This document shows, in pieces, positions 3,594 to 39,208 of a stretch of 64,000 bases of DNA (positions within the stretch are counted from its first letter, which is position 1; each line of letters opens with the position of its first letter). A program made the position numbers and the translations under genes. Below the pieces are notes generated by a model. It was not told where the DNA came from, did no database searches, and worked only from the letters and a program-made list of their open reading frames with translations. This DNA comes from an uncultured Deferribacteres bacterium (GTDB lineage: Bacteria; Zhuqueibacterota; JdFR-76; DREG01). The stretch lies in NCBI GenBank assembly GCA_964464595.1, contig CAYXGW010000002.1:69408-133407 (forward strand). The letters run 5' to 3'.

Positions 3594-3636
3594 ATAAGTA
3601 AAATCCTTATTTATTAATGGTTTAGGGTTAATAAAT

Positions 3637-4254: not shown

Positions 4255-4367
4255 TGTAATTGCAACAAAATAGTGTTACATAATCTGACAATCGAAATAG
4301 GCAAGGTATGAATCTTTTTGAGATTCCAACATATATTAATTGACAAATATTCTGCTTGCCTGACAAA

Positions 4368-5864: not shown

Positions 5865-6441
5865 CGACTATTTGGGTCTGTTGAAGCGATTCCATTTTTT
5901 CTTCCTCTTCTCTGGCCTTCAATAATGCTTCTATTTCTTCATAGCTTGGTAATTCGGAAAAATTATTAAGTCCAAAATATTGCAACAATTCTTGAGTCGT
6001 ACCGTACAAAAGCGGTTTTCCTACGGTGTCAGCTCGTCCCAGAATTTTAATCATTCCTCTCTCAAGTAGAGTACCGACAACACCATCTGAATTAACTCCC
6101 CTTATCGCTTCAACTTCTACACGTGAGACCGGTTGTTTATAAGTAATAACAGCGAGTGTCTCTAATGCTGCTTGTGATAGCCTAGGTCTTGTTCTAGCAG
6201 CATGAAATTTTTTGATATATTCATGATACTCCAGACGTGTAGCCAATTGAAAACCTCCAGCAATCTCAAAAATATTTATTGCATGATCCTTATAAACTTC
6301 ATTTAAGTCCGAAAGAGCTGTTTCAATTTCATCTTTTTTAAAATTTGGTAAAATTTGAACTAGTTTATTCATTGTAACAGGTTTATCTGCAACAAATAAT
6401 ATAGCTTCAATAATTTGGCTTATTTCGTTCATTTTGTTCAA
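5848..6441 (-). CDS. scpB: SMC-Scp complex subunit ScpB
   Basis: IIEAILF, LSQAALETLAVITYKQPVSR, IRGVNS. Confidence 0.95.
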   Translation of the reverse strand: MNKMNEISQIIEAILFVADKPVTMNKLVQILPNFKKDEIETALSDLNEVYKDHAINIFEIAGGFQLATRLEYHEYIKKFHAARTRPRLSQAALETLAVITYKQPVSRVEVEAIRGVNSDGVVGTLLERGMIKILGRADTVGKPLLYGTTQELLQYFGLNNFSELPSYEEIEALLKAREEEEKMESLQQTQIVDGNET

Positions 6442-7169
6442 TTACTGGAACTAATCCCAAATATCCAAATTTCAGAAAACGGTTTGGTTTGTCTTACTTG
6501 AATGATTTTATTTTTGATGAGTTCTAGCATTGCGATAAATGTGGCAACCAGAACAGCACGTGTTTTGATGTGAACTTCATCTATTAATTCCGAAAAACTC
6601 AATTGATCGCGACTATTGATCAACTTCTTAATAAATTCATACTGTTCATCTACACTAATTGTTGGAGTGTTTATTGTATGAACTGGCTGATTTTCGTACC
6701 TTAGGGTAACTTCACGAAAAGCACTTATTAAATCAAATAATGTAACTTGGCAAGGATCCAAACTTTGTTCTTCATCTTCCAAAAAATCAAATTGATAATT
6801 TTCCCTTTTATGGAATTTACGATATCTATTTTCTCTTGTAGATAATTCAAGCGCAATTTGTTTATATTTACGGTATTCAATTAATCGTTCAATCAATTCC
6901 TGCCTTGGATCAACTTCTTCCATGTCCTCTTCAATATCAGATTTTGGTAACAGCAAATGGGATTTTATTCGAATCAGAGTAGCCGCCATTACAATAAATT
7001 CACTGGCAACTTCCAAATCCAGGGTTTGCATAATTTGGATATATTGCAAATACTGTTGAGTAATGAGAGCAATTGGAATATCATAAATATTCAATTCATT
7101 TTTTTTGATTAAAAAAAGCAATAAATCAAGAGGGCCTTCAAAATTTTGTAATTTTATGCGATATACCAT
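6438..7169 (-). CDS. scpA: Segregation and condensation protein A
   Basis: FEGPLDLLLFLI, ASEFIVMAA, FIAMLELIK. Confidence 0.95.
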   Translation of the reverse strand: MVYRIKLQNFEGPLDLLLFLIKKNELNIYDIPIALITQQYLQYIQIMQTLDLEVASEFIVMAATLIRIKSHLLLPKSDIEEDMEEVDPRQELIERLIEYRKYKQIALELSTRENRYRKFHKRENYQFDFLEDEEQSLDPCQVTLFDLISAFREVTLRYENQPVHTINTPTISVDEQYEFIKKLINSRDQLSFSELIDEVHIKTRAVLVATFIAMLELIKNKIIQVRQTKPFSEIWIFGISSSN

Positions 7170-7179
7170 AAGGATTTAA

Positions 7180-8193
7180 CTATATTATTTCGTAGAAATT
7201 GCCAATTTTCACAGATTCTCGAACCTGCTCCATTGTAATTTTAGCTTCGTTTGATGCTTTCTCATTACCCGAAACAATAACTTCCCGGACAAAAGACTTA
7301 TCTTTTTCTAATGTCTTTCTTTTTTCACGGATTGGTTCTAAAAATTTACTCAGTTTGTCTGCTAAATTGTTTTTACAATCCACACATCCTAACACTCCAC
7401 TACGACAATCTCGTTCAATCTCCGGAAGTTCCGGAGGATTGAACTTTTGGTGGTATGTAAAAACTGTACATATTTCAGGATGTCCAGGATCACCCATACG
7501 AATTTTTGCCGGATCGGTTATTGCAGTTCTTACTTTTTTCTTAATCTCATCAGGAGTATCTGATAATAAAATTGTATTGCCTTTTGATTTGCTCATTTTT
7601 GCTCCATCTAACCCAGGCAGACGGCTAAATTTTGTTAGCAAGGATTTAGGTACCGGAAATACGAATCCATAAGTTTTATTAAACCTTCTGGCAATTTCCC
7701 TTGTTAATTCTACATGGGGTACCTGATCTTCACCTACCGGAACTGCATGAGCCCGATACATCAAAATGTCTGCCGATTGCAAAATCGGGTAACCAAGATG
7801 GCCATAGGAAACTTTATCTTCCAAGTGTAACTCTCGTATTTGCTCTTTTACCGTCGGATTTCGCTCTAACCGAGGCACCGTAACCAGCATCGAAAACAGA
7901 AGATGTAATTCTGCGTGCTCTTTAATAAGAGATTGAATAAAAATCGTGGATTTTTCGGGATTGATACCTGCAGCTAACCAATCAATTACCATATCTATTG
8001 AATCTTGCCAAATATTATCGGTATGCTGAAAATCAGTAGTAAGGTTGTGCCAATCTGCAACAAAATGAAAGCTTTCATACTCATTTTGCAATTTAATCCA
8101 ATTTTCCAATGCACCTGTATAATTTCCCAAATGTAGTTTACCCGATGGACGCATTCCACTTAATATGCGTTTATTCAATTCCATATTAGTCAT
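7180..8193 (-). CDS. trpS: Tryptophan--tRNA ligase
   Basis: SGMRPSGKLHLGN (HIGH-like), YPILQSADIL, KMSKS. Confidence 0.95.
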   Translation of the reverse strand: MTNMELNKRILSGMRPSGKLHLGNYTGALENWIKLQNEYESFHFVADWHNLTTDFQHTDNIWQDSIDMVIDWLAAGINPEKSTIFIQSLIKEHAELHLLFSMLVTVPRLERNPTVKEQIRELHLEDKVSYGHLGYPILQSADILMYRAHAVPVGEDQVPHVELTREIARRFNKTYGFVFPVPKSLLTKFSRLPGLDGAKMSKSKGNTILLSDTPDEIKKKVRTAITDPAKIRMGDPGHPEICTVFTYHQKFNPPELPEIERDCRSGVLGCVDCKNNLADKLSKFLEPIREKRKTLEKDKSFVREVIVSGNEKASNEAKITMEQVRESVKIGNFYEII

Positions 8194-10391: not shown

Positions 10392-12545
10392 CTAATTCCT
10401 TTTTGAAGTAGATTTAAATAGTATTTCCAGATCAAGCAAAGGTGAATAATTTTTCAAATATTGAACAGCTAATTTTTCTTCATATTCTAACGATGGCTGT
10501 TGATCTTTTTCCATTTCATAAATTGAAATTAAACCGGGTTTTAGATTAATTCTAGTATTAATTGAAATTAACTGTTCTTTCTCAAATTGAAATTCGCTGC
10601 CAATCAATGTTAAATCGCCTTTTAAAACATAAAAAAGAATTGGCATCATTTGCAATCTGGTTTTCGGTAGCCTGTTCTTTTTGCAGAAAGCGAAGACTTT
10701 CTTGGGAGGTTTTAAATTAGTTTTATCTTGTTGTGGAGAAAAATTCTGTGGATCTAAATCATAGTCTCCTATCCTGGTAAAAATTGGGAATTTTCTTAAT
10801 CGATTTCCCTGCAGAAATAAGATTGGCCAGGCTGGGATACTGACTAACAAAAGAGGCAAAGCAAATGTCCAGTCTACTAATCTCTTTAAAAATCGGTAGC
10901 TTGGTTTGAGTAAGCGATATCGAATTTCGACTAATGAAATTCCTTCTAATCTCTGCAATGTCTGGGCACCAATAAGAACACCCATGTCGTTAGAAGCAAT
11001 TTTAAAGTCCACACCCAAATCTTGTGACTGAGAAATTAAACTAAAGATCTTTTCATATGCAATAGAATCAGGACTAAAAACAACTTCATTGACTTCGAGC
11101 TCTCGAATATATCTCGGAAGATGGTTTACATCGAAAAAAAGAGGTAGGGTTGCGGCTCCGTTAAGATTGTAAACGTTAGAATCCGTTAAAAGTAACGCAA
11201 CAATTTTTGAATCAGTTAAATGAGATTCTTGTAGCTTTTTCACCAAATTTGAAAGAGAAATTCCATCACCAACAATCATTGTTCTTCTTTCTACTACGCT
11301 ATTCCTGATGCGATCGAAAAGTGGAGCTCTACTTTTCTTTGCAAGTCGATATAATGCCCATCTCCATCCGGGAATAAAGAATAAATTTAGTATTCCTGCG
11401 AGCAAAATAACAATTCGCGAGAAAGCAAATGATTTAGCAAAAAATGTAATTGTCGAATTCAATGCTAAACCAAGCAATACGGCTCCTACAGCATTCGCCA
11501 CAGAAAATTTCCGAATGTTAGAAAGCTCAAAGAAATAAAATACCATTAACCAAACAGAGGAATAAATTAGGGTGACCATTAGGTAGGATTGCCAGTGAAC
11601 TAATGATCCAAAACGGAGGTAAATGGCAATCATCAAAGAAATATTCAAGACAAATAAATCAACAATTGACCACTTAATCTTTAGAAACAAATTATGCATA
11701 AAAGACATAAACCCTCGTAATCCAATACCCAAAACCAAGACCCATTGAGGAAGCAAAAAATACCTGCCTTTGAAATGTTTACGCACAAATAAAAGCATCG
11801 CACGGTAGAATTGAAGCAAAGTATCAAATTGAGCTTCTGTAGAACTTGAGCCTTTATAATGAATAATCTGCGTTGTGGGAACATAGTAGATTTTCCAACC
11901 GGCACCGGACACACGATGGCACAAATCCAAATCTTCACCATACATAAAAAACAGATCATCGAACCTCCCCACCTGGTCAATAATGGTTCTTGGCATCATC
12001 ATAAATGATCCTGATATGGCTTCAACTTCCGTAATTTCATTAGGATTCAAATAGGTTAAATTGTATTTACCAAATAATTGACTTTTGGGGAAAAGCTTGC
12101 TAAGACCCACTAATTTAGTGAAACCGACCCAAGGTGTAGGAATACTCCTCCGACAAGAAAGCTGCAAACTACCATCAGGATTGAGTATTTTGCAGCCAAC
12201 AATTCCAGCTTTTGGATGTTGTGAAAAAAAATCAAGTAATGTCTTAAAAGTATCTTCCTGAACTATCGTATCTGGATTAAGAAATATGAGATATTCACCC
12301 AGACTTTCATCAATCGCTAAATTGTTTGCCTTTGCGAATCCAACATTTGTTGTTTTCGAAATCAAATTTACTTCAGGAAAATCTTTTTGCACCATCGCTG
12401 CACTGCCATCCCACGAGGCATTGTCTACAACGATTATTTCTGATGATATTCCCGGTAAAGATCTTTGGACTGAATTAATGGTTTGATAAAGAAACTCTCT
12501 GACATTGTAACTCACTATGATTATTGATAATACAGGCTTTGACAT
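10392..12545 (-). CDS. GT2 glycosyltransferase fused to membrane domain and degenerate WcaJ/PglC-like sugar-transferase domain
   Basis: N-terminal GT2 (IIVSYN, VVDNAS, NPDT, FFMYGEDLDLC); TM region; C-terminal KRLVDWTFA...LFYVLKGDLTLIG; start revised to MSKPVL. Confidence 0.8.
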   Translation of the reverse strand: MSKPVLSIIIVSYNVREFLYQTINSVQRSLPGISSEIIVVDNASWDGSAAMVQKDFPEVNLISKTTNVGFAKANNLAIDESLGEYLIFLNPDTIVQEDTFKTLLDFFSQHPKAGIVGCKILNPDGSLQLSCRRSIPTPWVGFTKLVGLSKLFPKSQLFGKYNLTYLNPNEITEVEAISGSFMMMPRTIIDQVGRFDDLFFMYGEDLDLCHRVSGAGWKIYYVPTTQIIHYKGSSSTEAQFDTLLQFYRAMLLFVRKHFKGRYFLLPQWVLVLGIGLRGFMSFMHNLFLKIKWSIVDLFVLNISLMIAIYLRFGSLVHWQSYLMVTLIYSSVWLMVFYFFELSNIRKFSVANAVGAVLLGLALNSTITFFAKSFAFSRIVILLAGILNLFFIPGWRWALYRLAKKSRAPLFDRIRNSVVERRTMIVGDGISLSNLVKKLQESHLTDSKIVALLLTDSNVYNLNGAATLPLFFDVNHLPRYIRELEVNEVVFSPDSIAYEKIFSLISQSQDLGVDFKIASNDMGVLIGAQTLQRLEGISLVEIRYRLLKPSYRFLKRLVDWTFALPLLLVSIPAWPILFLQGNRLRKFPIFTRIGDYDLDPQNFSPQQDKTNLKPPKKVFAFCKKNRLPKTRLQMMPILFYVLKGDLTLIGSEFQFEKEQLISINTRINLKPGLISIYEMEKDQQPSLEYEEKLAVQYLKNYSPLLDLEILFKSTSKRN

Positions 12546-27535: not shown

Positions 27536-27698
27536 AACTCGTACTATTCACCCGCAGTTTGTGTTTAATTATAAAATAATGGCAACTAATATAGAATAAT
27601 TCAATAGCTAAATCAATTATATGTTGGTGGATGGAACGGAGGGATACCTTAATTGGATATAATCAACTTATCATGAACTGGAATTCCCTTTGGAATGA

Positions 27699-27730
27699 TA
27701 TTTAATTCAAGCGTAAGTACACTCTCGTGA
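27699..27730 (+). repeat. Left copy of 32-bp imperfect direct repeat flanking the four-gene cassette
   Basis: tatttaattcaagcgtaagtacactctcgtga; 28/32 identical to 33517-33548. Confidence 0.8.
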
Positions 27731-27782
27731 TTATAATATGTAATAGACGATAAACATTTTAAAGTTGATTACAAATTTTCTC

Positions 27783-27811
27783 TTGACTTTATTAATCCAC
27801 CAAGATACTTT
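27783..27811 (+). promoter_or_regulatory. Possible sigma70 promoter for the cassette
   Basis: TTGACT-N17-TACTTT; motif match only. Confidence 0.3.
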
Positions 27812-28059
27812 CAAGTAAACAAAATTTAGGAAAACCTGGGGTTCTCCATGTCCAATTGGAAACACAGATTACTAAATTTAGAATTTTTCCATTATTCTAT
27901 CGGATTTGGGATGGTTATACATGAGGCAATGAAATGCTGGAGGACAATTGGAACAGGGAGCTGAAAGTCTGGGAATTGCCATTTGAGAAGGTTAAACAAT
28001 TGAGATTGACCAAAAAACTTATGAATAAACCAAAACCAATAGCCTTTATTTAGGAAGAT

Positions 28060-28695
28060 ATGAATAATAAATTAATTGTAAAGGATTGTAGCCTATGCTC
28101 GGCCTTACACGATAAAGATGAGTTCAAAAAACCCGATCGACATTATAACTTCAAATTATTTCAAGATAAGTTTTTCACTATACTGCCAAGTATTGGCCCA
28201 TTAGAACTCGGCCACGTGATGGTTGTAAGTCAGTACCATAAGATGAACTTGGCTTCAATGGGAGTACAATTGCTCAGTAAGTATGACCGACTCATTAATG
28301 GTATTCGAAATAAATATAGCCTTTATCATACCGACCTGCTTGAAGCTGAACATGGTCCTGTAGAAACAAATAGTGCAGGTTCTTGTATTATTCACACTCA
28401 CATTCACTTAATTCCTAACTGTGGTAAATTCGAAAATATTTTTGATGATAAGCTTGATAAAATTCTCATTACTAAAAATATTGAAGATATTGCAGAAATA
28501 ACAAAACCTTATATTTTCGTCCGAGGAAGGTCACAAACAATTATTATTTATGATGCTAACGATGTCCCTTCACAATATATTAGAAGAATCATTTGCAAGA
28601 ATGAAGAAAGAGAGGATTGGGATTGGGCCGTTTTTCCACATAATGACATAATTTTAGAAACTATAAATTATTGGCGTTCTCAGACTTCAAAATGA
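28060..28695 (+). CDS. HIT-superfamily (Cwf19/CwfJ-like) nucleotide hydrolase/transferase
   Basis: CSLC, PSIGPLELGHVMVV...H, EHG, canonical triad HTHIHLI, SQYIRR, WDW. Confidence 0.7.
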   Translation: MNNKLIVKDCSLCSALHDKDEFKKPDRHYNFKLFQDKFFTILPSIGPLELGHVMVVSQYHKMNLASMGVQLLSKYDRLINGIRNKYSLYHTDLLEAEHGPVETNSAGSCIIHTHIHLIPNCGKFENIFDDKLDKILITKNIEDIAEITKPYIFVRGRSQTIIIYDANDVPSQYIRRIICKNEEREDWDWAVFPHNDIILETINYWRSQTSK

Positions 28696-29738
28696 CTTCA
28701 AAATTTGATCCAGATTCTATTCACAATTGGGTGTCTTCTCTTTTTGCGAATTCGAAACAAGATTCATGTATAATTGCGAGTATCAACGATGATGATTGTG
28801 CAGTTATACGATTATTCAACAATTACATTATTGTCACAACCGACTATCTTAATGCTAGACCTATCGCCATTGAACTAGGGGTAGGAGGCTTTTGGGATTT
28901 GGGCAGACTAGTAGTTGCTTCTAACTTATCAGACCTTTGTGGAAGTGGTGCAAAGCCATTTGCGTTACTAACTTCAATAATGATGAAAAGAACTAGAAAT
29001 CGTATGGATTTTGAACAGTTAATGAAAGGAGTCAAATTTGAATTAGAAAAATATGATGTGCCTTTGATTGGGGGCGATACCAAGTTAGGCGATTCAACTG
29101 CAATTCTTGGTGTAGGTATTGGTATTGCTTCAGATATATCAAACCTTTTTTTAAGAAACAGCGCACAAGCCAAAGACATTTTGTGGTGTTCAGGTTATTT
29201 AGGCTCAATGAGTGCGGCAGTATTGGCAATGAATAGCAACAGAATTTCAAAAGGGTTGAAAAGTTGGGCAAAGAATGTGATTATTGAACCCCGAATCCCA
29301 ATAAACCTTTCCCAACAGATATCAGCTTCAGGGTTTGCCAACGGAGGAACTGACGTAAGTGATGGCCTTGGGAATGATCTATTAAGGTTATGTGAGGCAA
29401 GTAAAGTCGGAGTTATAATCAACGCTGACCAAATCCCAATTGAACCAGAAGCGATTGAGATTGCCAAAAAGTTAAATCTAAAACCATGGTTCTTAGCGTT
29501 TGGATTAGGTGGAGATTTCCAATTTATTGTGAGTACGAAAAATGACAGAAAATACTATAATAAGATAATACAAATGGGCTTTCACCAAATTGGTGAACTT
29601 ACTTATAAGCCTGATTGTTTAGTTAAACTCACAGACAATACATTATTAAAGATGCCAACAATTGGACATCGAGACGCTAGAAACCTAAGTTTTTCTAATG
29701 AACTAATGGAAATATTAAGCACAATACAAACGAATTAG
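28692..29738 (+). CDS. ThiL-like (PurM-fold) kinase, divergent
   Basis: DDDCAV, TTDYL, SNLSDL, LIGGDT, DVSDGL; ATGA overlap with upstream stop. Confidence 0.75.
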   Translation: MTSKFDPDSIHNWVSSLFANSKQDSCIIASINDDDCAVIRLFNNYIIVTTDYLNARPIAIELGVGGFWDLGRLVVASNLSDLCGSGAKPFALLTSIMMKRTRNRMDFEQLMKGVKFELEKYDVPLIGGDTKLGDSTAILGVGIGIASDISNLFLRNSAQAKDILWCSGYLGSMSAAVLAMNSNRISKGLKSWAKNVIIEPRIPINLSQQISASGFANGGTDVSDGLGNDLLRLCEASKVGVIINADQIPIEPEAIEIAKKLNLKPWFLAFGLGGDFQFIVSTKNDRKYYNKIIQMGFHQIGELTYKPDCLVKLTDNTLLKMPTIGHRDARNLSFSNELMEILSTIQTN

Positions 29739-29740
29739 GA

Positions 29741-30985
29741 ATGGTTACAATAGACCAAATTTCAAATGCTCAAGCGCGAATTATTGAGCTAATAAATGTT
29801 CAGTGTTCCCAGGGTGCACAATTAGACTCACTTCCTGACGGCACGTCTGCTTGTGGCCAATTCTTTGGAGATAAAGCTGAAAAACTTAAACAAAGAGGAA
29901 TATATGGGACATCAGCGGCAATTAGGTTGCTAACATATCGCGAGGACGATCTATCGTATAACTTGGTGCGTAAATTAATATCCTATCTACAAATTCGGTT
30001 TAAATCTGAATTAAGAGATTCAAAACATAAAGAACTGACTAAAATTACTCACGATGGCGAAAGCGATGAACACAATGTCATTAAATTATCTGAAATATTG
30101 TTCTCTCTCTCGTTTGTAAAACCGGCTATTTGCAATACTGAGGAGTTCAAAACTAATCTATCCAAACGTTTGCTTGCTGGAATGATTGATAACCGCGGGT
30201 GGGCACATTTTTCGGATTCACCGAATTCAAGAATAGAACTTTTACCCACAGCATACGCCGTTCAAGCTCTTATGGCTAATGGCTATCGACTAAAATTAGA
30301 CAAAGCTTTGAAGTATTTGGAGGAGAGATTAAAGCAGATCTTTCTAGAAAGTTTTTCGAGTGAACAAACAGATATTTCTATCTATATTTTCTGTCTTTAT
30401 GTGTTAGTTTTTTTAGAAGATGAGCTTGATAACCATAAAAGGGATTTATATTTGAAAGAACTCAAACCTTTGTGGAGAATCTTAGAGCCTCTATTTAATT
30501 TCGATCTAGAACAGAATATCGAATATTGGTATGCAAACGACAATTTTTATGTAAGAGTACCTTGGCAGATATACTTCATTGCAATATCATATCAATTGGC
30601 TCCTTTGAAGATATTTGGCTCCTCGGTAGTTCAAAGAAGATTGCAATCTATTTTAAATGATGTTTTAAACGATGGTTTTAAGTATCCTCATTCTGGAATT
30701 ATGTTGTCAACTAGAACGAACGCAATTTTGTTCGATATTTTGGGAATTATTAAAAAAAGTTATAACCGATCTATCGGATTTGTTATCTATAATTTATTTG
30801 ATCGAGCCAGAAATCTCCTTAGCAGGCCTAGTTTTACATATGCTGGATACTTAGCTTCGGTGATTTTGGCTAGTATTTCTATTTATCAATGGTTAGCAAA
30901 ATCCGCTTCATTAGGTGACCTAGCTCCCGAGTTTCTTGGTGCAATATTAATTGCACTATTCTCTTCTAGGAAAGCACGTAAATAA
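29741..30985 (+). CDS. Hypothetical alpha-helical protein (prenyltransferase/terpene-cyclase-like toroid, tentative) with two C-terminal TM helices
   Basis: GQF...GIYGTSAAIRLL and DNRGWAH...LPTAYAVQAL repeats; hydrophobic YAGYLASVILASISIYQWLA and LAPEFLGAILIALFS at the C-terminus. Confidence 0.5.
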   Translation: MVTIDQISNAQARIIELINVQCSQGAQLDSLPDGTSACGQFFGDKAEKLKQRGIYGTSAAIRLLTYREDDLSYNLVRKLISYLQIRFKSELRDSKHKELTKITHDGESDEHNVIKLSEILFSLSFVKPAICNTEEFKTNLSKRLLAGMIDNRGWAHFSDSPNSRIELLPTAYAVQALMANGYRLKLDKALKYLEERLKQIFLESFSSEQTDISIYIFCLYVLVFLEDELDNHKRDLYLKELKPLWRILEPLFNFDLEQNIEYWYANDNFYVRVPWQIYFIAISYQLAPLKIFGSSVVQRRLQSILNDVLNDGFKYPHSGIMLSTRTNAILFDILGIIKKSYNRSIGFVIYNLFDRARNLLSRPSFTYAGYLASVILASISIYQWLAKSASLGDLAPEFLGAILIALFSSRKARK

Positions 30986-30993
30986 GGCTGTTT

Positions 30994-33447
30994 ATGGAAT
31001 TTAAGGACATACTTTATGGCAGGATTATAATTCCAGACTGGATGTTACCATTCTTAAGAATCCCTGAATTCGTGCGTCTCAGGGGTGTTAGACTTTCTAA
31101 TGTCGATTCTATTCAGTACAAGGATTTCAACGGCCCAACTCGTTGGGATCATAGCATTGCAGTAGCAGCATTAGCATTGCGGTGCGCAGAAAAGCGTGGT
31201 CTTTCAAGAAAACAAAAAATAGAACTTTCATTGGCAGCGCTTCTTCATGATATTGCTTCACCACCATTTGCACATTCTATCGAATACGTCGTTGAAAACT
31301 ACAACCATGAATTGGAGGCTCAAAAGATTCTGAGTGCGATAACATCAAAGGACTCAGAACCTAATATTCCTATCTTCGCTTCTCAGGTGCCGCAATTCTT
31401 TAAGTCTTGCGAAAAGCTCTCTATTGATACTGGGATTAATATTGATCCAATACAAGTTGCAAAGCTGATTGTGGGGGATTCTGACTTGGGTTTTCTTATC
31501 AACGGCAGCCTTGATTTAGACAACGCGGACAATGTGACAAGAGCATGCCTTTTTCTGGGAATCGAAGTGGATAAAAACGTTCCCCTGCAACTTGCTGATT
31601 GGCTTGCCCAACAGAAACATGTTCCAATTGAATTGGAAATGGTAAAAAATGAGGCCGTTAGAAAGTGGTTTGGTTATCGAAAAAAATTATATCTTGAGTT
31701 CTATAACGCGTCAGATGATGAGCTTGGAAGAGAGGCGTTCTTACAACATCTAGTCCGTAAAGCCCGTTTGGCAGGCTTATCTAGGCAAGCTATAATCTGG
31801 AAAACAGATGAATCACTTTTATTCGCGATTGAGAACCTACAAGAAGAAACCACAAACAACACCAAGTCCACTCTCAAACATTTGGTTCAAAGGTATCGTT
31901 TACTCGAACAAACTTTCAAAATTAGCCAAATTGAAATAACCGATGAAGATCAACTTCGTATACTTCAAACACCTCAAGCTTCAAATTGGATAGAACAACA
32001 ACTATCTACTAATTCCTTTGAACCCTTTGTTTTAGTTAAATCTTTAAGACATGCAACCGATGAGCAAACCGCATCGGATTTGTTTCCAGTTAGTCCAGGT
32101 GTTTTGATTGTGTTTAAATTAACTGACAGCTTAAGATACAAGCAACTTCCAGATTGGTTGCAAGAAGGAATTCCTCAAAGTACAGTTGGGAAGAGTTTAC
32201 GGAAATATTTCACAAATGAAATAAGAAAAATAATCCCAAAGTGGGTCAACTGCAAACCGTGGATTGATACGAGCGCTGAAAGAAAGGATAATGTTCTTGA
32301 AAACCTCTCTAGTTTTGGGAACTGGAGTTTCCATTTGTCGAGAAATGAAAGTATTCACGCATATCCAAGCACATTTGTACATACAATTCCTGCAAGTTTT
32401 ATAAGTGCATTAGGTCTTCGAGGAGAACTCATTTTGGATCCTTTCGGAGGAACCGGCCAAACTGCAGTCGAAGCAATAAAATCCGGGTGCGAAGTTATAT
32501 CATCAGATTCAAACAGAATTGCAGCCTTGATTGCAAAAACTAAACTCTCTTACCTTAATTCAGTGAACCGTAAAAAACTTCGAAAAATATCATTGGATGA
32601 TATCGAGCGCATCGAATGTTTTAAAAAACCAAATTTTCACTTGATAGATAAATGGCATCACAAAGATACCTTTGAAGAATTATGCCGGATTCGGGCATTT
32701 ATAGAAATTCAACAAAACGTACTCTTGAAACAATTCTTAAAAACGAGCTTTTCATCAATCTTGACCTCAACCACAGCAAGGCGAGGTGAGGAGTCTAGTT
32801 ATTTTGCTGATAATACTCCGTTAGCAACAAATGTGGATTCTCCACCATATCATAATGCCATTAGGTTTTTCATTGATAGAATTAATAGAAACCTTAATGT
32901 TTTAGAAAGATTTTACTCATTTATCGAGAGAAACGGAAAGAACCCCGCAGATGAATTAAAACGTGCAAAAGTATTCAATTTTGATGCGAGACATTTGAAA
33001 GCGAAAGAGCTTAAGATAGAGGAAAAATCTATTGCCGGAATAATAACATCCCCTCCTTACTTGTGTATGTCCGATTATACGCTTGGATTACGATTGTCAT
33101 ATTATTGGCTCGAACCTGAATGTTTACAAAAGGATTTCGAAAGAGAAATTGCAGCAAGAAGGCAACGTTTCCGACCAGAGGAGGCATTGGATAATTATCT
33201 AAAAGATTTAGATACTTTTGCGTCAAATGTAACTAAACTTCTGAAATTGGGTGGTTTTCTGGCAATTGTTTTAGCTTCCCCAGAGGCGAGAGCATTCAAG
33301 AAACAAGACATAATTCAAGCAGTCGACGACATATTCTCTAGACATTCTTTGAATAGCTTGTGGTCTCAATGGCGACCAATAAGTTGGCATCGCAAAGGTT
33401 ATCAAAGATTAAAGGAAGAAAGACTTACAGTTTACACTTTAGAGTAA
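30994..33447 (+). CDS. HD-domain phosphohydrolase (SAMHD1/dGTPase-like) fused to N4C/N6A-type amino-methyltransferase
   Basis: PEFVRLR, TRWDHS, LLHDIASPPFAH, DLDNAD in the N-terminal part; HAYPSTF, ILDPFGGTG, ITSPPY in the C-terminal part. Confidence 0.8.
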   Translation: MEFKDILYGRIIIPDWMLPFLRIPEFVRLRGVRLSNVDSIQYKDFNGPTRWDHSIAVAALALRCAEKRGLSRKQKIELSLAALLHDIASPPFAHSIEYVVENYNHELEAQKILSAITSKDSEPNIPIFASQVPQFFKSCEKLSIDTGINIDPIQVAKLIVGDSDLGFLINGSLDLDNADNVTRACLFLGIEVDKNVPLQLADWLAQQKHVPIELEMVKNEAVRKWFGYRKKLYLEFYNASDDELGREAFLQHLVRKARLAGLSRQAIIWKTDESLLFAIENLQEETTNNTKSTLKHLVQRYRLLEQTFKISQIEITDEDQLRILQTPQASNWIEQQLSTNSFEPFVLVKSLRHATDEQTASDLFPVSPGVLIVFKLTDSLRYKQLPDWLQEGIPQSTVGKSLRKYFTNEIRKIIPKWVNCKPWIDTSAERKDNVLENLSSFGNWSFHLSRNESIHAYPSTFVHTIPASFISALGLRGELILDPFGGTGQTAVEAIKSGCEVISSDSNRIAALIAKTKLSYLNSVNRKKLRKISLDDIERIECFKKPNFHLIDKWHHKDTFEELCRIRAFIEIQQNVLLKQFLKTSFSSILTSTTARRGEESSYFADNTPLATNVDSPPYHNAIRFFIDRINRNLNVLERFYSFIERNGKNPADELKRAKVFNFDARHLKAKELKIEEKSIAGIITSPPYLCMSDYTLGLRLSYYWLEPECLQKDFEREIAARRQRFRPEEALDNYLKDLDTFASNVTKLLKLGGFLAIVLASPEARAFKKQDIIQAVDDIFSRHSLNSLWSQWRPISWHRKGYQRLKEERLTVYTLE

Positions 33448-33516
33448 GTTACAATGTGGTACAGAATGTTCAGCCAAAATAGCCGAACAATTGAGGTGCT
33501 TTCACTTTATTTCGAG

Positions 33517-33548
33517 TATTCAATTCAAGAGCAAGTACACACTCGTGA
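33517..33548 (+). repeat. Right copy of 32-bp imperfect direct repeat
   Basis: tattcaattcaagagcaagtacacactcgtga; internal dyad TCAAGAG-N10-CTCGTGA. Confidence 0.8.
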
Positions 33549-33714
33549 ATGTTCTTGCCACATAACAAGCCATACTATACATTTAGGAGCAATCAAAACC
33601 AGAGGCTACAGATCTGTTTTTATACGATTTCTAAATTATCGGCTACCTCTGCGCCGAATATTTCAGGTTAAGGTACTAAAAAAACATTCTTATCAAATAG
33701 TATGGAGGTAAAAA

Positions 33715-34089
33715 GTGAAAGTTTTGGGAATTCGATTTTGTACGGTTTCAAAAGAAGGGAAAGAACTGTCTGATTTCTTGAAGGATGGTTTGGGTCTGCC
33801 AACATTATTCGGCGATGGTACGGATAGCGAGTCTGAGTCAAAAGAATTCCGTGGCAATGTATTTCCAGCCGGCACAAGCTGGATTGAGGTCTGGCCCGAG
33901 GGGCCGGAAATGCCGGAGGGTATTATGCTGCAGATCGTGGTGGACAATGCTGATAAATGGGCCGAGCAAGCCAAAGCCAACGGACTTACCCCCTACGGCC
34001 CCACGGATGCTCACGGCGAGCGCATCTACTACTTGCAAGCGCCGACTGGTTTGGCCATAAGCTTTCAGTCCAAATTGACGCAGGAATAA
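33715..34089 (+). CDS. VOC/glyoxalase family protein
   Basis: GGAGGT RBS + GTG; FLKDGLGL, SWIEVW, LQIVVDNAD, PTDAHGERIYYLQAPTG. Confidence 0.7.
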   Translation: MKVLGIRFCTVSKEGKELSDFLKDGLGLPTLFGDGTDSESESKEFRGNVFPAGTSWIEVWPEGPEMPEGIMLQIVVDNADKWAEQAKANGLTPYGPTDAHGERIYYLQAPTGLAISFQSKLTQE

Positions 34090-34129
34090 TATTTGGTCGT
34101 GTTTTTTTCAATCTAACAAATAATTTTGC

Positions 34130-34158: not shown

Positions 34159-34223
34159 GCGCGTAAAGTTTGACAAAATTTCCACAGAATTTTTATATCA
34201 ACCCATCATTAAAGGTGAGCGTC

Positions 34224-35210
34224 ATGGCACTCAAAGCCGCTTTAATAATTGTTTCATTTTTCGCTTTTCCATATGAATCAATTGCCCAAACCAATCCCTA
34301 TAACATTGTTGAGAACTGGGCCAAGCTCCCCCTGGGCAGACCCTGGGGAGCGACGAGCGCGGTGTATCCTGCCAGTAACGGCAATTTATGGGTAGCCGAG
34401 CGATGCGGACAAAACAGCTGTATCGGAAAAGAGGATGTCCCTCCCATCCTCCTGTTCGATCCTGCCGGGAAACTGCTGAAAAGCTTTGGCGCAGGATTGT
34501 TGGTCTGGCCGCATGGGATTAATGTGGATAAAGACGGTAATGTCTGGATAGCCGATGCCCGGGGAGAAGACGGAAAAGGCCACCAGGTTTTGAAGTTTAG
34601 CCCGGATGGAGAGCTGTTGATGTCACTAGGCAAAGCCGGAGTCGCCGGCGAAGACCGGGATACTTTCAATGCGCCATCTGATGTTTTGGTTGCTCCCAAT
34701 GGCGACATTTTTGTTGCAGACGGCCACTGGGTCGATGGCAATAATCGCATTGTGAAGTTTTCCGGCGAGGGGAAATTCATTATGGCATGGGGAAAAACCG
34801 GATACGGTCCCGGTGAGTTTCGCGACCCCCACGCGCTCGCAATGGATTCCCAGGGCCGCCTGTTCGTCGGTGACCGGGCAAACAGCCGGATCCAACTCTT
34901 CGACCAGGAAGGAAACTACATTACTACCTGGACGCAATTTGGCCGGCCGAGTGGAATTTTTATTACCAAAGATGATGTCATTTACGTGGCTGATTCAGAA
35001 TCAAATACGCGACGAAATCCCGGCTGGAAAAGGGGCATCCGGATCGGCAGCGCCAAAAGCGGCTGGGTTACGGCTTTCATTCCTGATCCTGAACCGGACC
35101 AGGATAATTCCGGCACCAGCGGAGCCGAAGGCATTGCAGCTGATTCAAAAGGTAACTTGTACGGAGCAGAAGTCGGTCCACGGAAGTTGACTAAATATGT
35201 GAAGAAATAG
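34224..35210 (+). CDS. Peptidyl-alpha-hydroxyglycine alpha-amidating lyase-like NHL-repeat beta-propeller, exported
   Basis: PHGINVDKDGNVWIAD, FNAPSDVLVAPNGDIFVADG, FRDPHALAMDSQGRLFVGDRANSRIQ; signal peptide. Confidence 0.85.
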   Translation: MALKAALIIVSFFAFPYESIAQTNPYNIVENWAKLPLGRPWGATSAVYPASNGNLWVAERCGQNSCIGKEDVPPILLFDPAGKLLKSFGAGLLVWPHGINVDKDGNVWIADARGEDGKGHQVLKFSPDGELLMSLGKAGVAGEDRDTFNAPSDVLVAPNGDIFVADGHWVDGNNRIVKFSGEGKFIMAWGKTGYGPGEFRDPHALAMDSQGRLFVGDRANSRIQLFDQEGNYITTWTQFGRPSGIFITKDDVIYVADSESNTRRNPGWKRGIRIGSAKSGWVTAFIPDPEPDQDNSGTSGAEGIAADSKGNLYGAEVGPRKLTKYVKK

Positions 35211-35529: not shown

Positions 35530-36576
35530 ATGGAAAGAATAATAAACAGGTTCAAGAACAAGCGCAAACAAGATTATTTAACGATCGAGTATGCTAACGA
35601 GTACGCTTTTGTCGGAATCGGCAACCACAGCATTTATAATTTGTACCCTGTTTTGGATCATCTACGAGTTCCGGTCAAATATATTGTTACACACAGCCAG
35701 GAAAACGCTGCTTTGATTGATACACATTTCCCGAACGTAATTGGAACCAATGATGTCGGGAAAGTACTTTCTGACAGCAATATAGCCGGGGTGTTTGTTT
35801 GTACAAACCCAAAGAGTCATTTTGATCTTATCAAGCAAATTCTTGCAAGGGATAAAAGCGTATTTGTTGAAAAGCCGCCCTGCCAAAATTTGGCAGAATT
35901 ACAGGAATTAATTGAAATTGAAACCCAATCAAAAGGATTTTGCCTAGTTGGAATGCAAAAGAGATATGCACCCATCAATAAACCAATTAATAAAAAAGTA
36001 TCCCGGATAATTTCGTATCATTATCGATATCTTACCGGTCTTTATCCGGAAGGAGATTCACTACTGGATTTATTTATTCATCCCCTCGATCTTATCAGTC
36101 ATTTGTTCGGAGATTACACCATTGAATCCCAACAAGCTGCATTTCCAGCTTCCAATAAAAATTCAAAGTCTATATTTTTGCATTTAAAGCACGATACTAT
36201 TATTGGAAATATTGAACTCTCAACAAATTATTCCTGGGCATCGGCGGAAGAATCGTTGGAGATAAACACAGAAAAGGGCATTTTTAAATCAACCAATTTG
36301 GAAAATTTAACTTTCGAGAATAAAAGCAATCAATTCCTTAATGTCCCCCTGGAGAAAATCAAAGAATTTAATCAGAGTTCGACGACTTTGTTTAATCAAA
36401 ATTCTTTCATGCCGACATTAAAACATAATGAACTTTATACAAAAGGTTATTATATTGAAGTAAAGACATTTATCGATCTTTGCGAAGGACAAAAAGCGGA
36501 CAATTTATCATCTTTAAGCAGTTTGATTAAAACGTACAATACTATTCAACAAATAAAAAAAGAACATTATGTATAA
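35530..36576 (+). CDS. Gfo/Idh/MocA family oxidoreductase
   Basis: YAFVGIGNH, VFVCTNPKSHF, VFVEKPPC, VGMQKRYAP, DLFIHPLD. Confidence 0.85.
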   Translation: MERIINRFKNKRKQDYLTIEYANEYAFVGIGNHSIYNLYPVLDHLRVPVKYIVTHSQENAALIDTHFPNVIGTNDVGKVLSDSNIAGVFVCTNPKSHFDLIKQILARDKSVFVEKPPCQNLAELQELIEIETQSKGFCLVGMQKRYAPINKPINKKVSRIISYHYRYLTGLYPEGDSLLDLFIHPLDLISHLFGDYTIESQQAAFPASNKNSKSIFLHLKHDTIIGNIELSTNYSWASAEESLEINTEKGIFKSTNLENLTFENKSNQFLNVPLEKIKEFNQSSTTLFNQNSFMPTLKHNELYTKGYYIEVKTFIDLCEGQKADNLSSLSSLIKTYNTIQQIKKEHYV

Positions 36577-37798
36577 TACCAAAGATTACATTACCAGGGG
36601 TGTAAAATTTGCTAATAATATTTTACTGCCCGGACACAAGAAACTTTCTACTTTGATGATTTACGGCACAGATTTATGTGATTCAGGATGCAAGCACTGT
36701 TTAATTTGGGCAAAAAGGCCTACTGTACATTTGCCTTTAGAAAAAATCATTGAAATCATGAACAGCAAATGCGTAAGCAAAAGCACAACTGTCGGTTTGG
36801 AGGGTGGAGAATTTCTATTGCATCCTGAAGCGACAGAAATTCTTCAATGGTTTTCGGCAAATCATCCTAGGTTTGATTTATTATCAAATTGCCTTAAGCC
36901 AGAGGGTGTCATTGAGGCCGTAAAGGAATATCCCCCCAGTAGATTATATCTCTCTTTAGACGGAGATAAAGAAACTTACAAATATATGCGGGGGAAAGAC
37001 GGCTATGATAATGTGCTGCACGTAATTGAAGAGTGCAGGAAACTTGTACCCATTTCAGCAATGTTTACTCTTTCTCCGTATAACGATTTCGACGATTTAG
37101 AGCATGTTATTAAAGTATGTCAAAAATATGATATAGATGTGAGAGTCGGGGTTTATAGCAATATTGCTTTTTTTGATACGCTGGATAAAGCCCACGAAAC
37201 TGATATATCCACTAAAGTTGATACCCATATGTTAAAATACAAGGAAGTAAAACATTTGGTACAGGGCGGAACATCAACATTGAATACTGAAATAAATGTG
37301 GTGGAAAGAGAAAATATTAACATCCCAATTCACGATGAAGAAAAAATTATAAGCTCAAACTCATTTAAAAGCTCCGTCCCGGACATTGTAAAAGAAACGG
37401 CTGAAAATTATGATTTTCTCTTACTTTACGATGAGTGGCGTAAGAAAAATACAAAACTAAAGTGCTTCAGTATTTTGGATAGTATCATCGTACTACCCAA
37501 TGGAGACGTACCAATCTGTCAGAATCTTGATTTAAAACTTGGAAATATTTATGAAAAACCACTTGATGAGGTATTTAATTCTGCTGCCTCTCAAAATACC
37601 CAAAAAGAGTATGTGCACAACTGCAACCAGTGTTGGATCAATTTTCATAGAAAATATGATATTGTTATGATGAGATCGATGGAGAAGGTTATGCCTAAAT
37701 GGGTTGTGGAAAAACTCTTCGGACAATATCAATGGTCTGACGATCCTAACATAACATATGATAAGTTTATGAAAAAATACGATGGCTCCAGGAATTAA
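36569..37798 (+). CDS. Radical SAM protein with SPASM/twitch-like C-terminus
   Basis: CDSGCKHC (CX3CX2C), GLEGGEFLLHP, SLDG, C...PNGDVPIC...LGNI...CNQCW; overlaps upstream stop. Confidence 0.9.
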   Translation: MYNTKDYITRGVKFANNILLPGHKKLSTLMIYGTDLCDSGCKHCLIWAKRPTVHLPLEKIIEIMNSKCVSKSTTVGLEGGEFLLHPEATEILQWFSANHPRFDLLSNCLKPEGVIEAVKEYPPSRLYLSLDGDKETYKYMRGKDGYDNVLHVIEECRKLVPISAMFTLSPYNDFDDLEHVIKVCQKYDIDVRVGVYSNIAFFDTLDKAHETDISTKVDTHMLKYKEVKHLVQGGTSTLNTEINVVERENINIPIHDEEKIISSNSFKSSVPDIVKETAENYDFLLLYDEWRKKNTKLKCFSILDSIIVLPNGDVPICQNLDLKLGNIYEKPLDEVFNSAASQNTQKEYVHNCNQCWINFHRKYDIVMMRSMEKVMPKWVVEKLFGQYQWSDDPNITYDKFMKKYDGSRN

Positions 37799-38672: not shown

Positions 38673-38896
38673 ATGACTATAACAATTGACATAGACAAAT
38701 TACCCATTCATTCAGATCCGAAAACGATGAGTGGCACAACTGTATTCATCGGAACGCGTGTTCCGGTTGAAACTTTATTTGATTACATTGCAGACGGTGT
38801 TCACTTGATGAATTTCTTGACAATTTTCCCTCAGTAAAAAAGGAAGATGCTTTAAAAGTGCTGAATATCGCCCGTGAAGCTTTCATTAAGACATAA
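38673..38896 (+). pseudogene. DUF433 family antitoxin, frameshifted
   Basis: MTITIDIDKLPIHSDPKTMSGTTVFIGTRVPVETLFDYIADGV; frameshift near 38800 into LDEFLDNFPSVKKEDALKVLNIAREAFIKT*. Confidence 0.8.
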
Positions 38897-39208
38897 TGGC
38901 CGGAATGAGAGTCCTTATTGATGAAAGCCTTCCCCGCTATTTAACAAGTATTTTTAAAGATCACTCAGCAGAAACAGTGCAAGAAAAAGGATTGTCTGGT
39001 ATTAGCAACGGTGATTTATTGGCTTTCGCTGAAAATAAATATGACATTTTGTTAAGTAGCGATAAGAATTTGAAACATCAACAGAATTAATTACAATCTT
39101 TCGATTATTATTTTGCCATCGAATAAGCTTAGTGACATCAAATCCAATGAAACTAAACTATTAATTGCTGTTAATAAAATCCTACACAATACTTACATCG
39201 AGCTCTAG
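38896..39208 (+). pseudogene. DUF5615 PIN-like toxin, premature stop plus frameshift
   Basis: MRVLIDESLP...NGDLL...DILLSSDKNLKHQQN* (stop 39088-39090); continues in another frame as SIIILPSNKLSDIK...TYIEL*. Confidence 0.8.

Follow-up and report, generated by a model that had tools for sequence, protein, structure and literature searches.

An HD phosphohydrolase–methyltransferase protein as the core of proposed nucleotide-modifying conflict cassettes

A fusion protein at the end of a four-gene operon

What might a protein do that joins a phosphohydrolase of the SAMHD1 kind to an amino-methyltransferase with no cognate endonuclease for company? The question is posed by the 64,000-nucleotide stretch of DNA analyzed here (the window), from an uncultured Deferribacteres bacterium (GCA_964464595.1, contig CAYXGW010000002.1), in which an ORF at 30994-33447 on the forward strand, opening with ATG, encodes such a protein of 817 aa. 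A first-pass annotation made from the letters had described this ORF, and all the motifs that it quoted are present, each where expected. Pfam recovers an HD domain (E 2e-9) and an N6_N4_Mtase domain (E 1e-8), and the AlphaFold model of the whole protein has a pLDDT of 86 and a pTM of 0.87. The annotation had allowed that the fusion could be an artefact of assembly. This is contradicted by more than 120 full-length homologues (815-835 aa, 46-55% identity) and by 25 fused ORFs from independent genome assemblies; fused ORFs also populate about 22 clusters at 50% identity. It had also allowed for a common, annotated architecture; the fusion does recur, but the names that it carries in the databases are generic ('HD domain-containing protein'). 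Comparison of the homologous sequences shows that the ORF encodes a genuine bifunctional protein, in which an old pair of co-evolving genes has become fused.

The description of the methyltransferase as an 'orphan' did not hold up: its gene is instead the last of a conserved four-gene operon, and together with the HD domain it constitutes an old module. The lack of a cognate endonuclease, in contrast, stands: neither the window operon nor any of the five cassette types considered below has a conserved nuclease. The operon, all on the forward strand, is preceded by an intergenic region (27536-28059) that separates its first gene from the divergent valS and presumably holds the promoter; it includes a weak -35/-10-like match at 27856-27884, and a search upstream of the operon for riboswitches or leader RNAs in Rfam at E<=1 returned nothing but one chance match. 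The first gene (28060-28695) encodes a HIT-like protein of 211 aa, with weak matches to Pfam HIT/CwfJ_C_1, NCBIfam HinT and HIT structures in the PDB, which combines an N-terminal CxxC, the triad HTHIHLIP and a family-specific C-terminal extension. Both the triad and the CxxC are conserved in 23 cassette homologues, and the gene occupies the same operon position in about 22 loci. The second gene (28671-29738) codes for a ThiL-like kinase of the PurM/AIRS superfamily (Pfam AIRS 5e-19; PDB ThiL 1e-17). Its listed TTG start yields 355 aa, but the likelier start is the ATG at 28692, which overlaps the stop of the HIT-like gene as ATGA. The protein matches TIGR01379 (thiL) at 2e-45, with a score of 155 bits that lies under the NCBIfam equivalog cutoff of 184; it shares with ThiL the fold and the active-site motifs, which are conserved, but differs from it in its non-thiamine operon context.

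The third gene (29741-30985) specifies a 414-aa protein that finds no match in Pfam, NCBIfam, PADLOC or PHROGs. It is predicted to form an (alpha/alpha)6-toroid (AlphaFold pLDDT 90.6) followed by C-terminal transmembrane helices, and hydrophobic C-terminal segments are also seen in its homologues; Foldseek relates it weakly to the complement TED/C3d domain, linalool dehydratase and terpene synthases. It always lies between the ThiL-like kinase and the HD-methyltransferase. In the window the genes overlap or are separated by 2-8 nt. The order HIT-like protein, ThiL-like kinase, alpha/alpha-toroid and HD-methyltransferase recurs at about 24 loci that represent at least ten phyla, and the catalytic residues of the HD-methyltransferase, HIT-like and ThiL-like proteins are conserved. 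The four-gene operon is undescribed in the literature that we searched: no description of it or of the HD-methyltransferase pair was found there, including in comparative genomic studies of Dnd and BREX.

A rebuilt nucleoside pocket and a conserved target-recognition insert

The N-terminal half of the fusion protein (aa 1 to about 430; 30994-32283) is an HD phosphohydrolase domain of the SAMHD1/EF1143 clade, as the first-pass annotation had recognized. The family profile matches structures over the whole of this half (9mr6 at 1e-31, spanning positions 3-411; EF1143 at 1e-28; human SAMHD1 at about 1e-22), and the AlphaFold model retrieves SAMHD1 and EF1143 first, with the top Foldseek matches at a TM of about 0.55 normalized to the target; homology and likeness of fold thus extend over about 430 residues. 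The metal-binding motif H...HD...D is intact, with H53, H85-D86 and D176 all invariant, which bears out the claim that the ligands had been retained. These residues lie in TRWDHS (aa 49-54), in LLHD (aa 83-86), which opens the segment LLHDIASPPFAHSIE (31240-31284, aa 83-97), and in DLDNADNVTRA (31513-31545, aa 174-184). Of the catalytic positions of SAMHD1, H215, D218 and H233 have kept equivalents in the alignment (H94, E97 and H105, the first two of them in the same segment as LLHD), whereas a fourth, H210, has not; the triphosphate-binding R164 and R366 have theirs. Also invariant in the family are R28, L29, N36, R50, D174, N177, D179, N180, R183, W225 and Y233, as are H94 and H105.

The deoxynucleoside pocket of SAMHD1 is not kept. 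Q149, L150, Y315 and D319 are replaced by L34, S35, N180 and A184, K312 by N177, H210 by Ser/Thr, and G151 by the Asn that ends RLRGVRLSN (31075-31101, aa 28-36), the segment standing for the canonical RLRxIKQLG. Put as motifs, and aligned to solved relatives, IKQLG has become VRLSN, HDxGHGPFSH has become HDxATPPFAH and DxD(K/R)xDYxxRD has become DLDNxDNxxRA; the changes from RLxxIxQ and DxDR/KxDYxxRD that had first drawn attention to the ORF are therefore real, being seen in alignments and invariant in the family. Residues at the positions of the guanine allosteric site also appear to differ from SAMHD1 on our reading of the alignment. In SAMHD1, Gln149 and Asp319 are the ligands of the 3'-OH, Leu150 and Tyr315 pack against both sugar and base and the triphosphate is bound by Lys312; the H210A mutation disrupts catalysis (PMC7045340). 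The altered positions are thus nucleoside contacts in SAMHD1, as the first-pass annotation had proposed, and because of this it is a fair inference that the HD half acts on a non-canonical substrate. This is strengthened by the replacements forming an invariant family signature: N177 and N180 are invariant across all cassette types, and D.DN.DN occurs in 111 of the 118 full-length top matches, with the canonical motif in none of the 118. A further departure from SAMHD1 and EF1143 is that this HD domain is always fused to or paired with a methyltransferase.

The C-terminal half (aa about 441-817; 32314-33447) is a circularly permuted amino-methyltransferase of the N6_N4 family. It shares with the alpha-order type II N4C/N6A DNA methyltransferases the motifs X, I and IV and their order X-I...IV, with HAYPSTF at aa 455-461, the SAM-binding motif I as DPFGGTG (32437-32457, aa 482-488; D, F, G and G invariant) and the catalytic motif IV as an invariant TSPPY (33046-33060, aa 685-689). 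The permutation is evident from residues 444-510 matching the C-terminal end of the Pfam model, and from the alignment to TTHA0409, in which the SPPY segment falls on residues 22-57 and motif I on residues 209-267. The closest solved relatives are TTHA0409, N4C methyltransferases, M.PvuII and M.RsrI. Like DNA methyltransferases, this half is basic, with a pI of about 9 (median 8.5), and it has weak profile matches to RNA methyltransferases of the Trm11, Trm14 and Tgs1 types. In evolutionary terms, the domain is a descendant of the type II DNA methyltransferases.

It differs from them in having no partner endonuclease and in its target-recognition insert, which is not variable but conserved. 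Across 45 homologues drawn from many phyla, the frequency of the major residue is 0.58 in the insert (residues 541-680) as against 0.63-0.69 in the catalytic parts; the insert is not hypervariable, and it contains a conserved loop, YFADNTPL (32800-32823), that is specific to the HD-associated methyltransferases and is kept across cassette types. The loop is probably flexible in view of its low pLDDT in the AlphaFold model. Stand-alone relatives of this half occur on plasmids, where the HD half has no relatives; they share its whole architecture at 23-29% identity but lack this F/Y-x-A-D-N loop as well as the RLSY and ARRxR motifs. One stand-alone relative belongs to an R-M-like cluster of two methyltransferases and a hypothetical protein. 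The conserved insert, together with the nucleotide enzymes that are encoded alongside, favours a small fixed substrate, whereas the type II DNA methyltransferase descent and the basic pI point away from a free nucleotide.

The pair across genomes, and its distribution

The pair is usually not fused but encoded by two adjacent genes: in each of the 56 loci where the HD gene stands separately, the methyltransferase gene lies next to it. Pairwise distances of the two are correlated (r = 0.89 overall; 0.93-0.97 within types), the HD tree tracks the type of partner, and two HD proteins chosen without the motif also proved to lie in HD-methyltransferase cassettes. From these comparisons the pair emerges as the constant core that unites cassettes of at least five kinds, 4-5 genes long, in Bacteria and Archaea. 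In place of the HIT-like and ThiL-like proteins of the window, the sister cassettes couple this core with a guanylate-kinase/dCTP-deaminase-like fusion and a flavoprotein, with a PP-loop ATPase and a CMP-kinase-like protein, with a B12-radical-SAM enzyme and a NACHT NTPase (STAND), or with a carbamoyltransferase-ASCH protein. Every type has a membrane protein or a STAND NTPase; comparison of the membrane partners of the five types with hhalign detected homology only between those labelled c10 and c11. Apparent Rosetta-stone proteins that join a partner to the HD domain (P0051, P0272 and P0292) were dropped as evidence because their junctions resemble frameshifts or read-through.

The cassettes are rare and patchily distributed, and integrases or transposases are often their neighbours. 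Their immediate flanks, surveyed as an inventory, include integrases, resolvases, transposases, relaxases, retron-type reverse transcriptases and phage genes. A phage origin found no support: tblastn searches of 50,697 phage records (E<=1e-5) with the full protein and with the HIT-like protein returned nothing, the HD half on its own gave only weak EF1143-like matches in unannotated records, and scanning the viral contigs of IMG/VR for two peptide patterns of the family detected no relative. The proteins also lack specific families in NCBIfam 2026 and PHROGs, and no system-specific defence model of PADLOC-DB v2.0.0 matched them. Here the HD-methyltransferase drew generic MTase_II models, mad2 weakly and dGTPase weakly (E 2e-4, about 60 residues), and the HIT-like, ThiL-like, toroid and sister partners went without a match, with the exception of the radical-SAM protein, which weakly matched PDC-M51A.

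A proposed mobile nucleotide-modifying module and its rivals

We tentatively favour, as the leading though far from secure reading, a mobile conflict module that would methylate and then dephosphorylate a fixed, non-canonical free nucleotide rather than variable DNA motifs. The methyltransferase half would N-methylate the exocyclic amine of a single fixed substrate, our best guess being a cytosine-N4 nucleotide, and the kinase of the cassette (ThiL-like here; GMP-kinase-like or CMP-kinase-like in the sisters) would phosphorylate the modified monophosphate on its way to the triphosphate. With its triphosphate and metal chemistry retained and its nucleoside pocket rebuilt, the HD half would hydrolyze the non-canonical (d)NTP, whether to free the nucleoside or as a means of control and self-protection. 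The modified nucleotide itself may be a replication poison or a signal to the membrane protein, and the HIT-like protein could act on the same pool as a nucleotidyl transferase or hydrolase, this being the least constrained step. Which way the pathway runs, which base it modifies and what the HIT-like and toroid proteins do is guesswork. In support of a conflict module we would cite the widespread fusion, the conserved gene order, the co-evolution of the split pair and the clade-wide pocket replacements; the partners, which are predicted nucleotide or nucleobase enzymes such as kinases, dCTP-deaminase-like, HIT and ThiL proteins; the non-hypervariable insert, with a loop missing from the R-M-type relatives; and the presence in each type of a membrane protein or STAND NTPase, the mobile-element flanks, the absence from the phage records searched, and the precedents of Kongming and of the oxetanocin and cordycepin pathways taken up below. 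Against it weigh the basic nature and type II DNA methyltransferase descent of the methyltransferase half, the R-M-like cluster around one stand-alone relative, the housekeeping neighbours and ordinary GC content of the window copy, and the failure of PADLOC v2 defence families to match.

A broader and more doubtful proposal, which we nevertheless consider possible, is that the pair forms the core of hitherto unrecognized modular prokaryotic immune systems that make and police an N-methylated, or otherwise N4- or N6-modified, nucleotide as antiviral poison or second messenger, with the swappable tailoring enzymes defining subtypes and the membrane and STAND proteins acting as effectors or sensors. 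If the conflict-module reading is right, a DNA-methyltransferase lineage would have been recruited to free nucleotides, the pocket of a SAMHD1-type enzyme would have evolved for a modified nucleotide, and a modular family of conflict systems would have spread over bacteria and archaea. N-methylated nucleotides would then join depletion, chain terminators and cyclic or base-modified messengers among immune strategies, and the cassettes could be a source of enzymes for making or sensing modified nucleotides.

The serious rival to this nucleotide model is a DNA-marking system, which we hold to be less likely but not remote. Here, in the manner of R-M or BREX, the methyltransferase would mark host DNA at a fixed motif or without specificity and the HD half would be the effector, either a dNTPase that starves unmarked invaders or a nuclease, with the partners regulating or elaborating the mark (cf. 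Dpd/Dnd). The nearest stand-alone relatives, being annotated plasmid DNA methyltransferases with one in the two-methyltransferase cluster, the best PDB and PADLOC matches to N4C or N6A DNA methyltransferases and type II models, the basic charge and the mobile or island-like context all accord with it. However, none of the cassette types conserves a nuclease, helicase or ATPase motor, the target-recognition insert is not diversified among the 45 homologues, plain depletion of dNTPs needs no remodelled HD pocket, and the kinase, deaminase, HIT and carbamoyltransferase partners are left unexplained. Even were it true, an R-M-like system with a retooled dNTPase as effector would still be new.

Improbable, in our estimation, is the biosynthesis of a methylated nucleoside analogue, an antibiotic or signal in competition between microbes or a product of ordinary metabolism, instead of anti-phage immunity inside the cell, with the HD half freeing the nucleoside. 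Its enzyme logic is identical to that of the conflict module, and it has precedents in the synthesis of oxetanocin-A, in which the HD phosphohydrolase OxsA is paired with the B12-radical SAM enzyme OxsB, and in the cordycepin cluster with the oxidoreductase cns1 and the phosphohydrolase cns2. In each, a phosphohydrolase with a tailored pocket stands beside a nucleotide-modifying enzyme, and the same classes, B12-radical SAM and oxidoreductase, pair with the HD domain in the B12-radical-SAM and flavoprotein types of sister cassette. Yet those pathways have no methyltransferase and the likeness is one of enzyme class, OxsA being a small HD protein of the YfbR type, outside the SAMHD1 clade. The cassettes, moreover, hold only 4-5 genes and conserve no transporter or resistance gene, one type has a NACHT STAND NTPase, and a conflict system agrees better with the integrase and transposase associations and with a distribution that is rare and patchy.

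Still less probable is an RNA-directed module, in which the methyltransferase would modify tRNA or rRNA bases (m2G or m6A type), or the cassette would process, cap or repair RNA 5' ends, with 5' phosphates as the substrate of the HD half, a 5' monophosphate as that of the ThiL-like kinase and cap-like pyrophosphate links as that of the HIT-like protein. HIT proteins and ThiL indeed have chemistries, the latter taking a phosphate to a diphosphate, that suit work on 5' ends; the methyltransferase half is basic, with its weak matches to Trm11, Trm14 and Tgs1-type enzymes, and one sister partner has an ASCH domain. However, these RNA methyltransferase matches are far weaker than the DNA methyltransferase ones, the cassettes contain neither an RNA ligase nor RtcB nor any other hallmark of repair, and the distribution is that of a rare, mobile element rather than of a housekeeping function. 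That an ordinary dNTPase was joined to a solitary DNA methyltransferase by chance or misassembly, with nothing special about it, could appeal to the generic database names but is already contradicted by the fused ORFs of independent assemblies and of about 22 clusters, the strict adjacency and co-evolution of the split genes, the invariant non-canonical pocket and the conserved operon partners, and we give it next to no credence.

Among known systems, anti-phage nucleotide depletion uses dGTPase and dCTP deaminase (bioRxiv 10.1101/2021.04.26.441389). The cassettes resemble it in having an HD triphosphohydrolase of the broader dNTPase kind and, in one sister type, a kinase-dCTP-deaminase-like fusion; but depletion relies on single genes with canonical pockets, whereas the cassette core is multi-gene and includes a methyltransferase. 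Closer in concept is Kongming, in which a base-modified nucleotide, dITP, serves as the immune messenger, and which relies on a deaminase, a kinase borrowed from the phage and an effector that depletes NAD+ (bioRxiv 10.1101/2024.12.20.629578). In Kongming, and putatively in the cassette, a base-modifying enzyme and nucleotide kinases produce a non-canonical dNTP, which drives immunity. None of the components of the two were seen to be homologous, and in contrast to Kongming the cassette brings a kinase of its own, along with the methyltransferase, the HD domain and the membrane protein.

An HD-methyltransferase fusion with an altered nucleoside pocket

The ORF at 30994-33447 (+) is an intact reading frame for an 817-aa protein. 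Its Pfam matches are to an HD domain at aa 50-118 (E 2e-9) and, at aa 444-510 (E 1e-8), to the C-terminal part of the N6_N4_Mtase model; every motif quoted by the first-pass annotation lies where it was described. A search of 5.8 billion proteins recovered more than 120 full-length homologues (815-835 aa, 46-55% identity), whose names are uniformly generic, for example 'HD domain-containing protein'. Together with 25 fused HD-methyltransferase ORFs counted in independent genome assemblies and approximately 22 fused clusters at 50% identity in a library of 1.84 billion representatives, these rule out an artefactual fusion.

An HD profile built from 29 family members and compared with solved structures is matched along the entire domain by SAMHD1-type proteins, namely Rhizophagus SAMHD1 (9mr6; E 1e-31, profile positions 3-411), Enterococcus EF1143 (E 1e-28), BT4208 (E 8e-27), Aquifex 2hek (E 5e-26) and human SAMHD1 (E about 1e-22). 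The same proteins are the first structures retrieved with the AlphaFold model of the 817-aa protein (pLDDT 86, pTM 0.87). The HD half keeps the metal ligands (H53, H85-D86, D176), the equivalents of SAMHD1 H215, D218 and H233 (H94, E97, H105) and the triphosphate-binding R164 and R366 (R50, R229). Alignment to the solved relatives shows that in this family the canonical IKQLG has become VRLSN, HDxGHGPFSH has become HDxATPPFAH, and DxD(K/R)xDYxxRD has become DLDNxDNxxRA. The altered positions are those with substrate-binding roles in SAMHD1, where Gln149 and Asp319 contact the 3'-OH, Leu150, Tyr315 and Tyr374 surround the sugar and base, Lys312 contributes to triphosphate binding and His210 is required in substrate coordination (PMC7045340). 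N36, N177 and N180 are invariant in all types of the gene cassettes described below, and D.DN.DN occurs in 111 of the 118 best full-length matches of a motif-independent phmmer search, with the canonical motif in none. Given this invariance, the altered pocket motifs are, at the level of sequence, a clade signature and not drift. As SAMHD1 contact positions are changed, and invariantly so within the clade, the earlier proposal of a non-canonical HD substrate appears sound.

Conserved partners and five cassette types

The methyltransferase had been taken for an orphan, which is not borne out: its ORF comes fourth and last in a compact row of same-strand genes. It is preceded by genes for a HIT-like protein (28060-28695, +), a ThiL-like PurM-superfamily kinase (28671/28692-29738, +), whose ATG and the HIT stop codon share the sequence ATGA, and a 414-aa protein without family (29741-30985, +), which ends 8 nt before the HD-methyltransferase start. 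For the 414-aa protein, a confident structure prediction (pLDDT 90.6) gives an (alpha/alpha)6-toroid with only weak resemblance to complement TED domains and terpene-cyclase-like enzymes; its homologues carry C-terminal transmembrane segments. The same four-gene order with a fused HD-methyltransferase gene recurs in about 24 loci, with hosts including Desulfobacterota, Planctomycetota, Verrucomicrobiota, Bacteroidota, Acidobacteriota, Armatimonadota, Pseudomonadota, Spirochaetota, Binatia and the 'cyanobacterium TDX16' assembly, and the cassette HIT and ThiL-like proteins keep their catalytic motifs. Cassette decay and variation are also seen: two loci (L005, L022; around 6000-8000) carry the HIT-like, toroid and fused HD-methyltransferase genes but lack the ThiL-like gene, an rve-type insertion sequence splits it in another (L001:5129-6787), and all four genes are fragmented in L026.

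A further 56 bacterial and archaeal loci encode the HD protein (about 410-560 aa) and the methyltransferase (about 400-430 aa) in separate adjacent same-strand genes that often overlap; archaeal hosts include Methanothrix, Methanoregula, ANME-1, Methanoperedens, Bathyarchaeia, Heimdallarchaeota and a haloarchaeon. By the conserved partners of the pair we define five cassette types: type A, that of the window, with HIT, ThiL-like kinase and toroid protein (about 24 loci plus 3 with a split pair); type B, with a small membrane protein, a flavoprotein and a guanylate-kinase/dCTP-deaminase-like fusion bearing a C-terminal membrane helix (about 27 loci); type C, with a PP-loop ATPase, a three-helix membrane protein, a CMP-kinase-like protein and a second methyltransferase (11 loci); type D, with a B12-binding radical-SAM enzyme and a DUF4062-NACHT NTPase (8-9 loci); and type E, with a membrane protein and a carbamoyltransferase-ASCH protein (4-5 loci). 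Grouping in the HD tree follows cassette type, pairwise distances of HD and methyltransferase correlate (r = 0.89 overall, 0.93-0.97 within types), and two HD proteins picked from the motif-independent phmmer hits are likewise encoded within cassettes of this kind.

A second fused ORF (805 aa; L061:7974-10391) occurs in a type C cassette with PP-loop ATPase and CMP-kinase-like genes, while the pair is separate in the other type C cassettes; this suggests that fusion happened more than once, the alternative being that a single base was misread where the two genes normally overlap by 4 nt. The second type C methyltransferase, encoded downstream of the CMP-kinase-like gene (about 10850-12200 in L040, L052, L057, L065, L066 and L073; on the opposite strand in L050 and L055), is a paralog that shares the permuted architecture and is about 410-440 aa long. 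Three database proteins are apparent fusions of the HD with partners, namely P0051 (1171 aa, toroid-HD-methyltransferase), P0272 (668 aa, toroid/TM-HD) and P0292 (687 aa, radical-SAM-HD); at their junctions a stretch of unusual sequence precedes an HD N-terminus that is itself normal (M..F.D.LYG), and hence they are likely frameshift or read-through artefacts.

The cassette parts are members of known enzyme families. We found no description of the HD-methyltransferase pair or operon in Pfam 2025, NCBIfam 2026, PADLOC v2, PHROGs or the full-text literature, recent Dnd and BREX comparative genomics included. That the cassettes form a new modular family of nucleotide-modifying immune systems is less likely than not, but a serious possibility.

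A putative nucleotide-modifying pathway and its rivals

In the methyltransferase half, motifs I (DPFGGTG) and IV (TSPPY) are invariant in the family, and their order X-I...IV is a circular permutation of the beta-class enzymes; in the alignment to TTHA0409, the SPPY segment pairs with N-terminal sequence and motif I with C-terminal sequence. Its closest solved relatives are N4-cytosine and N6-adenine DNA methyltransferases, and in PADLOC and PHROGs it is matched best by models for type II or 'DNA methyltransferase' enzymes. Stand-alone relatives of the same architecture (23-29% identity) are found on plasmids, and one lies in a Helicobacter cluster of R-M-like appearance with two methyltransferases and a hypothetical protein; unlike the plasmid enzymes, the HD-associated ones conserve an F/Y-x-A-D-N loop, RLSY and ARRxR. 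A 140-residue insert at the target-recognition-domain position shows no hypervariability across 45 homologues drawn from many phyla. The half is basic (pI 9.2 in the window protein, family median 8.5), which is compatible with binding of either nucleic acid or polyphosphate.

The pair is conserved and co-evolving, with intact catalytic motifs, a rebuilt nucleoside pocket and a non-diversifying insert; its partners are nucleotide enzymes and a membrane or STAND protein, and its contexts are mobile. We infer that its substrate is a single, fixed non-canonical nucleotide. In three cassette types there is a dedicated kinase of the phosphomonoester to diphosphate type (ThiL-like, guanylate-kinase-like or CMP-kinase-like); modified-base phages use the same logic, as does Kongming, in which a base-modified dNTP is the immune messenger (bioRxiv 10.1101/2024.12.20.629578). 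Several cassette components point to the cytosine N4 position: the SPPY/N4C-like methyltransferase, the CMP-kinase-like protein, the dCTP-deaminase-like domain and the ASCH domain, the last because an E. coli ASCH protein hydrolyses N4-acylcytosines. In oxetanocin and cordycepin synthesis, HD phosphohydrolases tailored to unusual nucleotides work beside B12-radical-SAM or oxidoreductase enzymes. On the strength of the kinases, the cytosine-N4 pointers and these precedents, we tentatively favor, with somewhat less than even confidence, a free-nucleotide pathway: the methyltransferase would methylate a free nucleotide, the cassette kinase would re-phosphorylate it, and the HD half would hydrolyse the non-canonical (d)NTP, either for control/self-protection or for nucleoside release. 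The product would serve either as a poison or in signalling, and the role of the membrane protein would be that of effector or anchor.

The chief competing model is a DNA-marking system of the R-M or BREX kind in which the HD half is the effector. It is supported by the DNA-methyltransferase ancestry and basic charge of the methyltransferase half; we consider it a serious but less likely alternative given the nature of the partner proteins, the non-variable insert and cassettes that hold neither nuclease nor motor. A nucleoside-analogue pathway for export is improbable, and an RNA-directed module still more so.

Distribution and genomic setting

The cassettes are rare and patchily distributed, with about 106 confirmed matches in a pattern-based scan of 185,579 species genomes. 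Pfam or PADLOC matches among their immediate neighbors, given as raw counts, include tyrosine integrases (5), resolvases (5), large serine recombinases (2), rve transposases (2), relaxases (2) and retron-type reverse transcriptases (2), alongside phage portal and replication genes, DUF499, a Schlafen-like helicase and SMC-like ATPases. Also present are TrmO_N (tRNA m6t6A methyltransferase family; 2), PADLOC mad3 (2), an adenosine deaminase (1) and a SAM synthetase (1). In L087, rve-type transposase genes (3581-4796 and 10868-11278) bracket a type B cassette (HD, methyltransferase, kinase/dCTP-deaminase-like protein and flavoprotein) in a composite-transposon-like arrangement. Phage records (tblastn, E<=1e-5) and IMG/VR contigs (pattern scan) yielded no relative.

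The window copy lies between valS and ordinary metabolic genes, with GC at the local level. Directly downstream (33454-34100) lie only short overlapping ORFs, one of which (124 aa, 33715-34089) has no Pfam match, followed by an NHL-repeat gene (34170-35210) with a GC of 0.45 versus about 0.36 in the rest of the window. At 35530-37798, the genes for a GFO/IDH/MocA oxidoreductase and a radical-SAM/SPASM protein overlap, and glycosyltransferase and FemAB-like genes come next; together they seem to form a distinct cluster for sugar or envelope modification that has no connection with the HD-methyltransferase operon. A 64-aa ORF (38896-39090, +) resembles, by eye only, DUF5615 small proteins, and a DUF433/DUF5615 pair lies a few kb downstream of another cassette (L003:16377-16945), which may be a coincidence.
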